Shown: piece by piece, positions 8,833 through 10,974 of the stretch
Position numbering within the stretch: the first letter of the stretch is position 1
Layout: every line of letters begins with the position of its first letter
From: Chlamydiales bacterium
GTDB lineage: Bacteria; Chlamydiota; Chlamydiia; Chlamydiales; JBDQID01
Direction of reading: 5' to 3'
Assembly (NCBI GenBank): GCA_047611865.1
Contig: JBLFWS010000070.1
Span: forward strand, 1 to 15,777
Length of the DNA: 15,777 nt
Notes under the pieces: model-generated
What the model was told of the DNA's origin: nothing
Database searches by the model: none
Seen by the model: only the letters and a program-made list of their open reading frames with translations
Program-made: the position numbers and the translations under genes

Positions 8833-10974
8833 CTATCCCTTTTCCTTTGCAAGAGCCTTGTGCCACGTCTGACTGTTCTCTTCAAGGTTACGCATGCACT
8901 CCTGAATATTGGGAAAAACGAGAGCAAAGCTTCCGTAAAGGGGTTTCACAATAAACTCGATGAAGGCGGCCTGACATTTTGGAATAGATACTGCATCCCT
9001 GTCCATAAATGGAGATATGGGGAGGCCAGAGGCTTTTTCAAGATCTCCTTGATGAAAGAACTCATCCATAACGGCTTTTGTCCATTTCTTTGCTACGCGG
9101 TATGGACGGGCAGGATTACAGACGTCTCCACATTTTAAGGCTAGCTTCATTAACAGTAGTCTGTCTTCACGATTGAGGCGGTCAAAGGACTTAGACTCTT
9201 TGATCCTTTTGCTAAAGCTTGAGAGAATATCAAAATGTTGTTTCATATCAGTAGCGAGGATGTTGGAGATGATGATCTTTCGAACTTCTGCGGTGCTTTC
9301 TGGAGATAAACTTTCTAAAATATTACACCCAGAGTGATGGATGATTTTGAATAAGTTACTAATGTGATGGTTTTCCAGGATTGATTGATCGTTGTACTTT
9401 AAGGCGAGTGGAGACTGGGTCAATTCATGGTAATTGTTACTTAATCCAGGGTGACATAAATCATGGGCAAAGGCACTGATGAGAAAGGCTAGGATATCCA
9501 AGTCTGTCAAGTAGTTACTGAGACCGCCCCTTGTGAGGAAATAAAACGTCATTTGAGTGACATCAAAGGCATGGAGGAAGTTATGATAGGGTACATTACG
9601 ATATTCAGATTTTAATTCGCTGGCAAAAAGTCGTATAGATTCTTCAGAAATCTTAAAGGTTTCCAGCAAATTAAAGTGTTTGAACATTTCAACATATAAG
9701 TCTATCAGTTCTAGTTGATTTTCAATATAATTAAAGGCATTAAACTTGAGAGAGTTCAGAGGCCCAAGGCTTTCGTCTTTAGTAGGGGGTGGGGCTGTGA
9801 TTCCAGGGAAATAGGAGTAGGAAGTAGCAAAAGTAGAGTACTCCTTGATTAACCACTTGTTGATCTCCATATCAAGTTCAACAACAAAGTTAGGATTAGT
9901 AAAGTATGGACGGAAGAGTTTTTCATCTGACAAATTGCTAAGAATGTCATCTATCTCATCATGGAAATCCTGTGGAACTCTTTGTTTTAATTGAACGAGC
10001 TGCTGAATGCTCTCTTTGAGGGGGGCCCTAATGGCATTAAGGATAGCCTGCTTTTTGAGCTCTTCTTCTTTCAGTTCATCGTGAGCTTTCTTAAGCTGGC
10101 TGACGTCTTCAAGAATAAAAAACGCCTTTCTTACTGTACCTGTGTCATCGCGTTCTGTAGTAGCGGAAAGGACAACGTGGACGACGTCATCGTTTTTCTT
10201 GTACAGTTTCAAAGGGACTTCCTTAACACCGCCGTCATTAACACAAGGGACCAAAACTTCTTGCTCAAAACGGTTTTGCGACTCTTGCAGCATAAAATCA
10301 TCAAGACGGTGTCCGACAATTTCTTCTCGCTCATACCCAAAAGTGTGAAGCCAGTGATCACTAATATTCAAGATCTCAGCTTTGTCGATCTCTAAAGAAT
10401 GGGTGATGGCAAAAGTATTTTGGTATAAGCACTGGAAGTTCTCGGTAATGTCTTCGAGTTCTTTTTTTGTCTGATTGAGTTCGGTAACATCATCGAGAGA
10501 AATTAGGGCTCCTGACCAGGCCTGGCTCTCATCTTTTTGCATAATAGCTGAGAGAACCACATCGATCACTTGTCCATTTTCCTTCAGAATCTGAATATTT
10601 ACATTTTGGATAATTTCGTCAGAGTCAAGGAATTGTGAAAATATCTCTTTAATAATTTTTTTAGAGGATTCAGTAAGAAAGTGAGTAAAATTCTTTCCTA
10701 TAAGCTCTTTACTATCATACCCCAAATTGTTCAGGCAGCTCTTGCTAACCTTAGAAATTTCATGGTTACTGTCAATGGAGCATAACATCGTCGCAGAATT
10801 ATTCACAAGTAACTTATCTTCAGTGAGATACGGTGTATCATAAGTCACTTCAAAAGTGGGACTCAGACGAATATGCAGGTCAGATAACTTTTTCTTGATA
10901 TCTTCACGGGTATTTTTGTCTTTAATATTATCACAAGCTTTTAAAACGGATTCTATTAGAGTTTTTTCTGGCAT
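8833..10974 (-). CDS. PAS-PAS domain protein fused to a class I (eukaryote-type, PDEase_I) 3',5'-cyclic nucleotide phosphodiesterase
   Basis: C-terminal YHNFLHAFDV, HDLCHPGLSNNY (fits the PROSITE class I PDE signature H-D-[LIVMFY]-x-H-x-[AG]-x2-[NQ]-x-[LIVMFY]), SILENHH, ILATDM, KCGDVCNP, EFFHQGDLE, PFMDR and CQAAFIEF. Two PAS/PAC repeats (LGYDSKELIGKN...DDVTE; FGYEREEIVGHR...EDVSQ). Confidence 0.92.
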   Translation of the reverse strand: MPEKTLIESVLKACDNIKDKNTREDIKKKLSDLHIRLSPTFEVTYDTPYLTEDKLLVNNSATMLCSIDSNHEISKVSKSCLNNLGYDSKELIGKNFTHFLTESSKKIIKEIFSQFLDSDEIIQNVNIQILKENGQVIDVVLSAIMQKDESQAWSGALISLDDVTELNQTKKELEDITENFQCLYQNTFAITHSLEIDKAEILNISDHWLHTFGYEREEIVGHRLDDFMLQESQNRFEQEVLVPCVNDGGVKEVPLKLYKKNDDVVHVVLSATTERDDTGTVRKAFFILEDVSQLKKAHDELKEEELKKQAILNAIRAPLKESIQQLVQLKQRVPQDFHDEIDDILSNLSDEKLFRPYFTNPNFVVELDMEINKWLIKEYSTFATSYSYFPGITAPPPTKDESLGPLNSLKFNAFNYIENQLELIDLYVEMFKHFNLLETFKISEESIRLFASELKSEYRNVPYHNFLHAFDVTQMTFYFLTRGGLSNYLTDLDILAFLISAFAHDLCHPGLSNNYHELTQSPLALKYNDQSILENHHISNLFKIIHHSGCNILESLSPESTAEVRKIIISNILATDMKQHFDILSSFSKRIKESKSFDRLNREDRLLLMKLALKCGDVCNPARPYRVAKKWTKAVMDEFFHQGDLEKASGLPISPFMDRDAVSIPKCQAAFIEFIVKPLYGSFALVFPNIQECMRNLEENSQTWHKALAKEKG

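Follow-up and report, generated by a model that had tools for sequence, protein, structure and literature searches.

An apparent mosaic of PAS sensor domains and a protist-like RegA-type phosphodiesterase cassette encoded on a chlamydial contig

Class I cyclic nucleotide phosphodiesterases (PDEs) are textbook eukaryotic enzymes. The available passages of PMC4222275 likewise assign class I to eukaryotes and place the named bacterial cyclic AMP (cAMP) phosphodiesterases CpdA, Icc and Rv0805 in class III, the fold of which is unrelated and the motif of which, D-(X)n-GD...GNHE...GHXH, differs from the H(X)3H...HD motif of class I. According to the portions of PMC3906536 that are available, RegA is a cAMP phosphodiesterase that is set by phosphorylation of its receiver (REC) domain and that occurs in Dictyostelia, Acanthamoeba and Naegleria. 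PAS followed by a class I PDE is the layout of animal PDE8. Here, a gene is described that is located on a 15,777-nucleotide stretch of DNA (the window, meaning the whole stretch that was analyzed) of contig JBLFWS010000070.1 from the Chlamydiales bacterium assembly GCA_047611865.1. It encodes, in a single protein, two PAS domains, a segment resembling the linker of RegA and a class I PDE domain. A sequence-only reading of this DNA had proposed a horizontally acquired, eukaryote-type PDE placed on a bacterial input module, and the present analysis agrees: the contig is chlamydial, the relatives of the PDE are eukaryotic, and the PAS domains match those of prokaryote-type sensors.

The gene (8833..10974, reverse strand) is one open reading frame (ORF) without interruption, encoding 713 amino acids plus the stop codon (protein P0001). 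Five further proteins that possess both PAS and PDEase_I domains, P0003 to P0007, are 45-61% identical to it, and the six are referred to below as the family. The HMMER check that the sequence-only reading had suggested found both PF00233 and the PAS models above cut-off. The PDEase_I domain is complete, as that reading had claimed: the Pfam match covers profile positions 1-238/238 and residues 463-697, with 303.9 bits against a cut-off of 24.8 and an E value of 1.2e-90. All the motifs it had named are in place, namely YHNFLH, HDLCH (HD codons at 9460-9465), ENHH (residues 534-537), TDM (575-577), CGDV and CQAAF in the catalytic domain, and DVTE (162-165) and DVSQ (290-293) in the PAS half. 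Residues H464, H468, H504, D505, H508, E534, H537, T575, D576, D617, N620, W631, Q668 and F671 are kept in all six family members, and H464-x3-H468, H504-D505 and D617 are in addition invariant in every non-gapped row of an alignment of 81 PDE domains. By homology, these residues include the Zn/Mg ligands, which in PDE4B2B are His238, His274, Asp275 and Asp392 (PMC13095499). The retention of the catalytic, metal and purine-clamp residues together with Asn620 in the whole family argues against a pseudo-enzyme; purifying selection on catalysis would produce such conservation, and it holds across genomes whose cysteine desulfurase (IscS) proteins are only about 60% identical.

Comparison with known structures points to the same fold. 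A phmmer search against all PDB sequences matched 151 distinct PDE chains, the best being PDE4B (E 2.1e-62, residues 410-709), PDE4D and PDE9A (1.5e-60). An AlphaFold2 (AF2) model predicts an all-helical PDE fold for this region, with a predicted local distance difference test score (pLDDT) of about 84-98 per 10-residue block over residues 401-710. Foldseek placed the modeled catalytic domain on PDE4D, PDE4B and PDE9A at template modeling (TM) scores of 0.81-0.94 (target-normalized), with root mean square deviations of 1.2-2.5 A over 309-316 columns in most rows and of 6.5-9.0 A in five rows with longer alignments. Sequence and model show an entire class I fold of the PDE4/PDE9-like kind, with all metal and catalytic residues intact. 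The predicted reaction is probably 3',5'-cyclic-nucleotide hydrolysis, which is also the reaction of CpdA, Icc and Rv0805 in the bacterial cell. The best guess for the preferred substrate is cAMP, which is most likely by analogy because RegA is a cAMP enzyme and residues 620 (N) and 628 (A or S) are in the majority state of the REC-bearing PDEs (REC-PDEs) in the 81-row alignment. N620 is present in 6/6 chlamydial and 29/29 REC-PDE rows. Q668 is found in 6/6 chlamydial, 18/29 REC-PDE and 30/37 "other" rows, and F671 in 80/81 rows.

The similarity to RegA extends upstream of the catalytic domain. In BLASTP, P0001 aligned with the REC-PDE P0291 in a single segment covering residues 304-708 (39% identity, E 5e-87), and with the PDE P0034, which has no REC domain, over just residues 430-710 (46% identity). 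The shared upstream block reads, in a column view, A..(T/S)P(L/I), (L/I)(Y/F)(R/Q)PxF and D..(T/I)..(W/F)L..E(Y/F)(S/T), and takes the form A..(T/A)PLK, L(F/L)RPYF and D....WLIxEYS in the pre-catalytic module. A six-residue pattern of the LYRPxF type, sought in the 140 residues upstream of the PDE region of proteins with at least 110 residues there, was present in 39/53 REC-PDEs, 15/173 other PDEs and 6/6 chlamydial proteins; several of the 15 are short and may be truncated. A linker hidden Markov model (HMM) built from residues 300-400 of the family matched 39/55 REC-PDEs and 19/208 other PDE proteins, and many of the best non-chlamydial matches of the family profile begin at about position 285-300, well ahead of the Pfam domain. 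A receiver domain was identified in 34 of 132 PDE matches and in one more protein, P0047, the architectures being REC-PDE or REC-PDE-HPt; named relatives of this kind come from Acytostelium subglobosum, Stygamoeba regulata, Willaertia magna and Andalucia godoyi. As a separate observation, the order receiver-PDE-HPt, with the phosphotransfer domain behind the PDE, occurs in the protist proteins P0296, P0303, P0305, P0306, P0326 and P0047, whose sources include Willaertia magna and Andalucia godoyi, and these proteins form a clade of their own (99/96).

These comparisons showed homology between the approximately 100 residues before the catalytic domain and the linker that RegA-type PDEs possess in amoeboid protists. 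The eukaryote-derived part would then be the linker plus the catalytic domain (residues ~304-713) and not the catalytic domain alone, and the protein appears to be a mosaic with its junction at about residues 300-313, directly after the DVSQ motif that closes the second PAS domain. As the acquired piece includes this pre-catalytic module, the event would have been an exchange of REC for PAS and not the joining of a bare catalytic domain to PAS. The likenesses to RegA of Dictyostelium and its Acanthamoeba and Naegleria homologues comprise a catalytic domain with 39-43% identity, the same residues at positions 620/628, an N-terminal signaling domain upstream of the same linker, and the pre-catalytic module of about 100 residues (A..TP, LYRPxF, D..T..WL..E), which among the known systems compared here is shared with RegA uniquely. 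The differences are that the chlamydial protein carries a helical hairpin and one or two PAS domains in place of the receiver, that its host is a bacterium, that its gene has no introns, and that the catalytic-domain tree does not settle the kinship. Pfam gave no Response_reg match at E <= 0.1, and a local REC HMM matched none of the family members. Since it is without a receiver domain, the protein does not, strictly speaking, belong to the RegA family. The safest statement on the source of the cassette is that it is probably the protist group of PDEs in which this linker occurs, chiefly in RegA-type enzymes, with no donor lineage nameable.

For the phylogeny, the catalytic region was taken from 271 PDE-bearing proteins, of which 81 were kept: 62 with the highest domain scores among those covering 270 or more profile positions, and additional named taxa chosen out of 25 listed. 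P0002, P0147 and P0421-P0423 were left out as duplicates or fragments, and 190 others for tractability. The tree was calculated with IQ-TREE from 314 columns under LG+C20+F+G4. The six chlamydial sequences form one clade with 100/100 support and a stem of 0.49, a result that fits a single acquisition. This clade is sister (90/92, unstarred) to a 21-row clade of REC-less enzymes, consisting of PDE3, PDE7, a PDE4-like protein and sequences of Naegleria, Willaertia, ciliates, Percolomonas and Bodo, and it lies outside the assemblage of REC-PDEs, which comprises a weakly held set of 39 rows (81/34) and the REC-PDE-HPt clade (99/96). Forcing the chlamydial sequences together with the REC-PDEs cost 2.32 log-likelihood units, with a p value of 0.446 in the approximately unbiased (AU) test, which does not reject this grouping and does not show it either; the test is weakened because the REC-PDE grouping was named after the tree had been seen. 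A divergent trace of the linker motifs is found in the REC-less P0034, at the base of the REC-less clade, and "RegA-type" may for this reason denote a wider ancestral group.

The two PAS/PAC repeats noted by the sequence-only reading were identified by Pfam as PAS (residues 54-163) and PAS_9 (residues 198-293), both above cut-off, and twice by the NCBIfam "sensory box" model TIGR00229. With two stretches matched by each profile, the scores are 82.5 bits for PAS_9, 59.2 bits for PAS and 76.2 bits for TIGR00229. The two domains are referred to as PAS-A and PAS-B. Both folds are modeled at a pLDDT of about 90, the strands and helices of PAS-B spanning residues 188-290, and a local PAS-B HMM scored 156-185 bits in all family members. 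The PAS half is matched best by multi-PAS histidine kinases (HisKA plus HATPase_c, some of them hybrid) and by a GAF-PAS-GerE protein, and the named matches are archaeal (Hodarchaeota, Methanosarcina). The PAS domains therefore appear to be of bacterial, or prokaryote, type, an assignment that rests on best hits and not on a resolved tree. The LOV-type motif NCRFLQ was not seen in the sequence.

The claim that both linkers are coiled coils was borne out for one of them. In the inter-PAS helix (residues 164-186) the hydrophobic fraction at heptad positions a and d is 0.83, a value reached by 0.4-0.6% of shuffles in two (P0001, P0003) of the three two-PAS proteins. The linker from PAS-B to the PDE (residues 292-349) showed no significant heptad pattern in any of the six homologues checked, and it contains an invariant proline, P318; for these two reasons a continuous coiled coil is not claimed. 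A complex prediction for two copies of residues 164-350 gave a score of 0.18 against a mark of 0.42, which weighs neither way on dimerization; by analogy to PAS sensors and PDEs, the protein is assumed to be a dimer.

The form of the protein held in the database, P0002, has 651 residues and starts at M63 (10788), inside PAS-A. The first 38 residues of the long form, however, align with P0003-P0007, and C14, D19 and L30 are invariant in all six members, the single-PAS forms included; the ATG at 10974 is therefore preferred to the M63 start. The AF2 model, calculated from a 50-row alignment, has a mean pLDDT of 86.1 and a predicted TM score of 0.53. It orders the protein into a helical hairpin (residues 3-37), PAS-A (63-162), a helix (164-185), PAS-B (188-290), a long helix (292-349) and an all-helical domain (404-712), with a pLDDT below 50 at residues 351-366 and 380-400, which belong to the pre-catalytic module. 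The hairpin is modeled as helices at residues 3-14 and 20-37, and the pLDDT over residues 1-40 is 73-93 per 10-residue block. Matches of a local HMM of these 40 residues were confined to the seven family sequences that possess this N-terminus, out of 423 proteins scanned. Direct reading of the 713-residue sequence revealed no signal peptide and no membrane segment. The features of the gene are compiled in Table 1.

Table 1. Features of the PAS-PAS-PDE gene and of the protein it encodes, in window coordinates
Feature	Position	Strand	Basis
Whole PAS-PAS-PDE gene	8833..10974	-	ORF list and translation
Shine-Dalgarno-like GAGAGGG, 4 nt ahead of the ATG	10979..10985	-	Sequence reading; resemblance to consensus only
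N-terminal helical hairpin, residues 1-40, no known family	10855..10974	-	Alignment, local HMM, AF2 model
PAS-A, residues 54-163, missing in 3/6 family members	10486..10815	-	Pfam PAS 54-163, TIGR00229 55-173, alignment
Inter-PAS helix, residues 164-186, after junction motif DVTE (162-165)	10417..10485	-	Model helix at residues 164-185, heptad test
PAS-B, residues 188-293, DVSQ junction at its end, in 6/6 members	10096..10413	-	Pfam PAS_9 198-293, PAS_3 202-282
Pre-catalytic module, residues ~304-403, as in RegA-type REC-PDEs	9766..10065	-	BLASTP, motif, linker HMM
Class I PDE catalytic fold, residues 404-713	8836..9765	-	Pfam, phmmer against PDB, Foldseek
Pfam PDEase_I span, residues 463-697	8884-9588	-	Pfam
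YHNFLH, residues 463-468 (catalytic His464, metal ligand His468)	9571..9588	-	Invariant in 6/6 family members; roles by homology
HDLCH, residues 504-508 (metal ligands His504, Asp505; plus His508)	9451..9465	-	Invariant in 81/81 aligned PDE domains
CGDV, residues 615-618 (metal ligand Asp617; Asn620 after it)	9121..9132	-	D617 in 80/81 rows, other row gapped
CQAAF, residues 667-671 (purine-binding Gln668, Phe671 clamp)	8962..8976	-	81-row alignment

A word-indexed search of 5.8 billion clusters at E <= 0.001 returned 31 proteins, of which 6 possess PAS together with PDEase_I (the window's own protein and P0003-P0007), 2 a PDE only and 23 PAS only. P0006 is annotated as "hypothetical protein" and comes from the marine single-cell genome of Chlamydiales bacterium SCGC AG-110-M15; the main text of the paper introducing this genome mentions no phosphodiesterase, cyclase or cAMP. 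P0004, P0005 and P0007 (580-591 residues) are without PAS-A and keep the N-terminal hairpin, PAS-B and all that lies downstream. A profile of the six members matched 8,252 of 1.84 billion representatives at E <= 1e-30. Among the best 150 of these, 3 belong to the family, 7 are multi-PAS proteins lacking a PDE and 140 are PDE proteins. A PAS domain is absent from all 140, of which 132 were scanned with Pfam (37 + 75 + 20), 3 were further scanned and 5 had precomputed Pfam annotation; the local PAS HMMs gave the same result. All named relatives of the PDE part beyond the family are eukaryotes, mostly protists, including Percolomonas, Acytostelium, Naegleria, Willaertia, Andalucia, Bodo, ciliates, fungi and animals, and the Atlas neighbor clusters are all 95-100% Eukaryota.

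A scan of the GTDB species-representative genomes with the single protein yielded 22 pattern matches, none of them confirmed. The scan with all six members, for which two patterns were used, found no orthologue among the GTDB representatives; its patterns are family-specific and are no test of class I PDEs in other bacteria. It confirmed 6 loci of 104 pattern matches, located in Gracilibacteria, Peribacteria and unclassified metagenome-assembled genomes (MAGs). Two of these, L001 and L005, were rejected as relatives of the fusion, being HD-type proteins of 247 and 260 residues (translation table 25) instead of complete class I PDEs; the Pfam scan was made for the L001 protein alone, which matches just PDEase_I positions 1-50/238 with 27.6 bits. 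L002 has no ORF of at least 150 residues under table 11, table 25 not having been applied. The L001 (7911-8654) and L005 (7872-8654) genes form an observation in their own right, encoding proteins of about 250 residues with VPYHNFLHA...HDAGHTG in Gracilibacteria and related MAGs; genes of this type adjoin threonyl-tRNA-synthetase-like and PilT-like genes, and their products carry a class-I-PDE-like metal motif and have no known function.

Another system with a comparable layout is animal PDE8, to which the sequence-only reading had drawn a parallel. The parallel stands for the succession of PAS and class I PDE, and PDE8 clusters are the nearest structural neighbors of the Atlas model (residues 198-713, TM 0.43-0.47). 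PDE8 is nevertheless an analogue in architecture only and not the nearest relative: it does not occur among the 60 best PDB sequence matches, the PDE8A_N domain (PF23198) is absent from the chlamydial protein according to Pfam, and the PAS domains here are closest to those of prokaryote-type sensor kinases. As the sequences are not close, PF23198 is lacking and the PAS domains are of prokaryote type, the resemblance is read as convergent architecture. An origin of PAS-B and the PDE as a unit from a PDE8-like protein was rejected, since no PAS-bearing PDE was found among the nearest 150 relatives, that is, the best 150 profile matches. With the bacterial PAS-output enzymes (PAS-HD-GYP, PAS-EAL/GGDEF and PAS-histidine kinases) the protein shares S-box PAS domains, a D-(I/V)-(T/S) junction leading into a helix, and a similar length and layout; it differs in its output, which by homology is a class I PDE for mononucleotide cyclic nucleotides (cNMPs) and not an HD-GYP/EAL c-di-GMP hydrolase or a kinase. 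PAS, class I PDE, the RegA-type linker and the principle of a PAS-gated PDE (as in PDE8) were known already; what is new, as far as seen, is their combination, the bacterial host and the REC-to-PAS exchange. Full-text searches, some of them degraded by prefix matching, found no published description of a chlamydial or other bacterial PAS-class I PDE, nor of any class I PDE from chlamydiae.

From these data a mechanism may be proposed. An ancestor of these chlamydiae would have captured a protist cassette of linker and PDE, and PAS sensors would have replaced the receiver domain. PAS-B would respond to a ligand or to a change in redox state, and PAS-A, in the members that have it, would modulate this response. 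The DV(T/S)x junction helix and the RegA-type linker that was kept would relay the signal to the catalytic site and thereby open or close it, so that PAS gating would take the place of receiver phosphorylation in RegA. PAS-B, present in all six members, would be the obligatory gate, and PAS-A, present in three, an accessory input. The protein may well be a soluble, signal-gated 3',5'-cNMP phosphodiesterase, most likely acting on cAMP, that stays in the cytoplasm of the bacterium and carries out the degradation step of its own cNMP circuit, a proposal that, taken with all its parts, is tentatively held at a little under an even chance. The bacterial cytoplasm is preferred as the place of action because a PAS-PAS-enzyme protein is a typical bacterial one-component sensor and because the N-terminus is conserved and confidently folded and is not a variable secretion signal. 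In terms of language-model features, bacterial PAS-HD proteins of 714-739 residues are neighbors at 0.92.

Several points weigh against this proposal. On the side of origin, these are the sister position of the family to the REC-less clade, an AU test that leaves the REC-PDE grouping unrejected at best, and the linker trace in P0034. On the side of function, the sole match of the PAS region among PDB sequences is human PAS kinase (E 0.007), which gives no ligand, the linker between PAS-B and the PDE is without a heptad pattern, and the cAMP preference is by analogy alone, as sequence cannot give specificity. The search for cyclases and cNMP-binding proteins suggested by the sequence-only reading covered the 15.8-kb window and found none among the 11 neighboring ORFs (Pfam). 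On general grounds, moreover, a gene taken from a host regulator is equally suited to act on the host. In a host-directed reading, which is judged unlikely yet is not to be dismissed, the protein would be exported, for example by type III secretion, into the protist host as a deregulated copy of the host's RegA and would keep host cAMP low; the exchange of REC for PAS would free the enzyme from the host's histidine-kinase phosphorelay, and in amoebae the expected outcome would be a suppression of encystation driven by cAMP and protein kinase A (PKA). Type III signals are usually variable and disordered, and prokaryote-type PAS sensors are unusual on effectors; both weigh against export, as does the finding that the first 40 residues are conserved and modeled as a folded hairpin. 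Likewise, the available passages on encystment report no block of encystment by chlamydial symbionts, and several endosymbionts survive it. In favor of export are the RegA-type character of the linker and catalytic part, the window without a cyclase or cNMP receptor, the secreted-type serpin with a signal peptide that is encoded divergently next door, and the lack of a Sec signal peptide or membrane segment, which is as expected for type III substrates. The available parts of the literature add that chlamydiae without exception depend on an intracellular life in eukaryotes and that their type III system is conserved (PMC5826181, PMC5604735), that RegA is pivotal for intracellular cAMP in amoebae and that its loss causes precocious encystation (PMC3906536). 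It is also conceivable, but improbable, that the fold serves another purpose, with cCMP/cUMP, 2',3'-cNMPs or a cyclic dinucleotide as substrate, or mainly as a cNMP-binding or scaffold module. The near equality of the phmmer bit scores for PDE4B (cAMP, 214.6) and PDE9A (cGMP, 208.5) conveys no specificity, the context of the second histidine motif is HDLCH/HDxGH as compared to HDVDH in PDE4, and the available part of PMC4222275 documents substrate surprises for bacterial class III PDEs. The conservation of the catalytic, metal and purine-clamp residues and of Asn620 throughout the family speaks against such a role, as do pocket residues like those of known 3',5'-cNMP hydrolases and a modeled pocket that superposes on PDE4 and PDE9.

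All of this presupposes that the gene is real, and an artefact, either as eukaryotic contamination of the PDE part or as a contig that joins protist and bacterial DNA, is considered extremely improbable. The suspicion could arise because, the family aside, all relatives of the PDE part are eukaryotic and because repeats resembling miniature inverted-repeat transposable elements (MITEs) lie just upstream (11191-11361), as repeats can seed mis-assembly. PAS and PDE are, however, encoded in one intron-free ORF; for comparison, RegA of Acanthamoeba has 12 introns according to the available part of PMC3906536. Five other proteins from independent assemblies show this fusion with 45-61% identity, one of them from a single-cell chlamydial genome, and bacterial genes are found on both flanks. 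Composition and codon use resemble those of the neighbors: the GC content of the gene is 0.396 (window 0.41) and 0.415 at third codon positions, codon use correlates with that of the other genes at r 0.88, and the two halves are alike (PAS 0.384, PDE 0.405). The window contains a bacterial small signal recognition particle RNA at 2624-2723 on the forward strand (47.9 bits, full model 1-97/97), and the closest named relatives of its IscS are from Parachlamydiaceae (60%), Rhabdochlamydiaceae (60%), Chlamydiales bacterium SCGC AG-110-M15 (59%) and a Chlamydiales MAG (58%). In three other carrier genomes the longest contig is the same for the IscS and PDE homologues (200,817, 29,607 and 41,675 bp), which suggests that both genes are on one contig there, as inferred from the lengths and not from a view of the contigs themselves. 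The window is bacterial and chlamydial, an ordinary chlamydial chromosomal neighborhood.

Downstream of the PDE gene, after a gap of 96 bp, follow genes for a DUF7499 protein and a CPBP/Rce1-like membrane protease, and sugar-nucleotide and glycan genes, a PP2C gene and the cysteine desulfurase gene are located farther away. The DUF7499 and CPBP/Rce1-like genes (7136-8736, reverse strand) have 2 bp between stop and start, and the DUF7499 protein (E 6.5e-58) has a lipoprotein-like N-terminus with a Cys. As they are on the same strand as the PDE gene and 96 bp from it, co-transcription is possible, and no terminator-like site lies in between on that strand. In a promoter and terminator scan of 7900-13700, 11 promoter-like sites were counted where 12.4 would be expected, and 8 terminator-like sites where 4.0 would be expected; none of them was assignable to the PDE gene.

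Divergent from the PDE gene is a serpin gene at 11376-12665 on the forward strand, encoding 429 residues with a signal-peptide-like N-terminus (Pfam Serpin, E 6.8e-76); it is the second protein here from a family best known in eukaryotes and sits between two MITE-like copies. These elements of about 170 bp have terminal inverted repeats (CTAGGTCGTGTATTAAAATTAGGGGAT...) and are located at 11191-11361 and 13186-13357, in direct orientation and with 76-88% identity, bracketing the serpin gene and a palindromic element. The first copy occupies most of the intergenic region between the divergent PDE and serpin genes, and partial copies are found at 13407-13455 and 15500-15529. The palindromic non-coding element (12673-13115, 443 bp) has terminal inverted repeats of 34 nt (97% complementary) around an inverted repeat of 77 nt (86%); it has no Rfam match and lies within a 916-bp stretch without an ORF of at least 100 residues. 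The PP2C and cysteine desulfurase genes (13582-15499, forward strand) overlap by 11 bp, and a functional link between them is suggested by P0187, a single fusion of PP2C and Aminotran_5 with 642 residues that occurs elsewhere. The region 1-6889 contains glycan-type genes, namely an NAD-dependent epimerase/dehydratase, a nucleotidyl transferase, a weak glycosyltransferase match, an S-adenosylmethionine-dependent methyltransferase and an asparagine-synthase-like amidotransferase. It also contains an ORF of 218 residues (2873-3529) without a Pfam match, and inverted repeats at 1336-1438 and 4727-4930.

The picture that emerges is that of an intact class I PDE that appears fixed in an obligate intracellular bacterial lineage, with its protist-specific regulatory linker kept and its input rewired to prokaryote-type PAS domains. 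It may serve as a natural experiment in which different inputs (REC, PAS and, elsewhere, GAF) act on the same PDE via a common linker, and, as a small, intron-free and bacterially encoded class I PDE, it should lend itself readily to expression for studies of structure and mechanism. A further idea, open to testing, is that chlamydiae sense cAMP or interfere with it, cAMP being the signal by which amoebae decide between growth and encystation. Action within the bacterium, as is preferred here, would imply unrecognized cNMP signaling in environmental chlamydiae. A bolder and rather doubtful possibility is that the RegA linker and catalytic cassette of the hosts was stolen, rewired to PAS and is injected to hold host cAMP down. 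In that case PKA-driven encystation or another cAMP-dependent stress response would be blocked and the host would remain a feeding, replicating trophozoite; the protein would represent the first case of a bacterial effector breaking down host cAMP by means of a host-derived class I PDE, and it would offer a direct molecular handle on the control of amoebal differentiation by intracellular bacteria.

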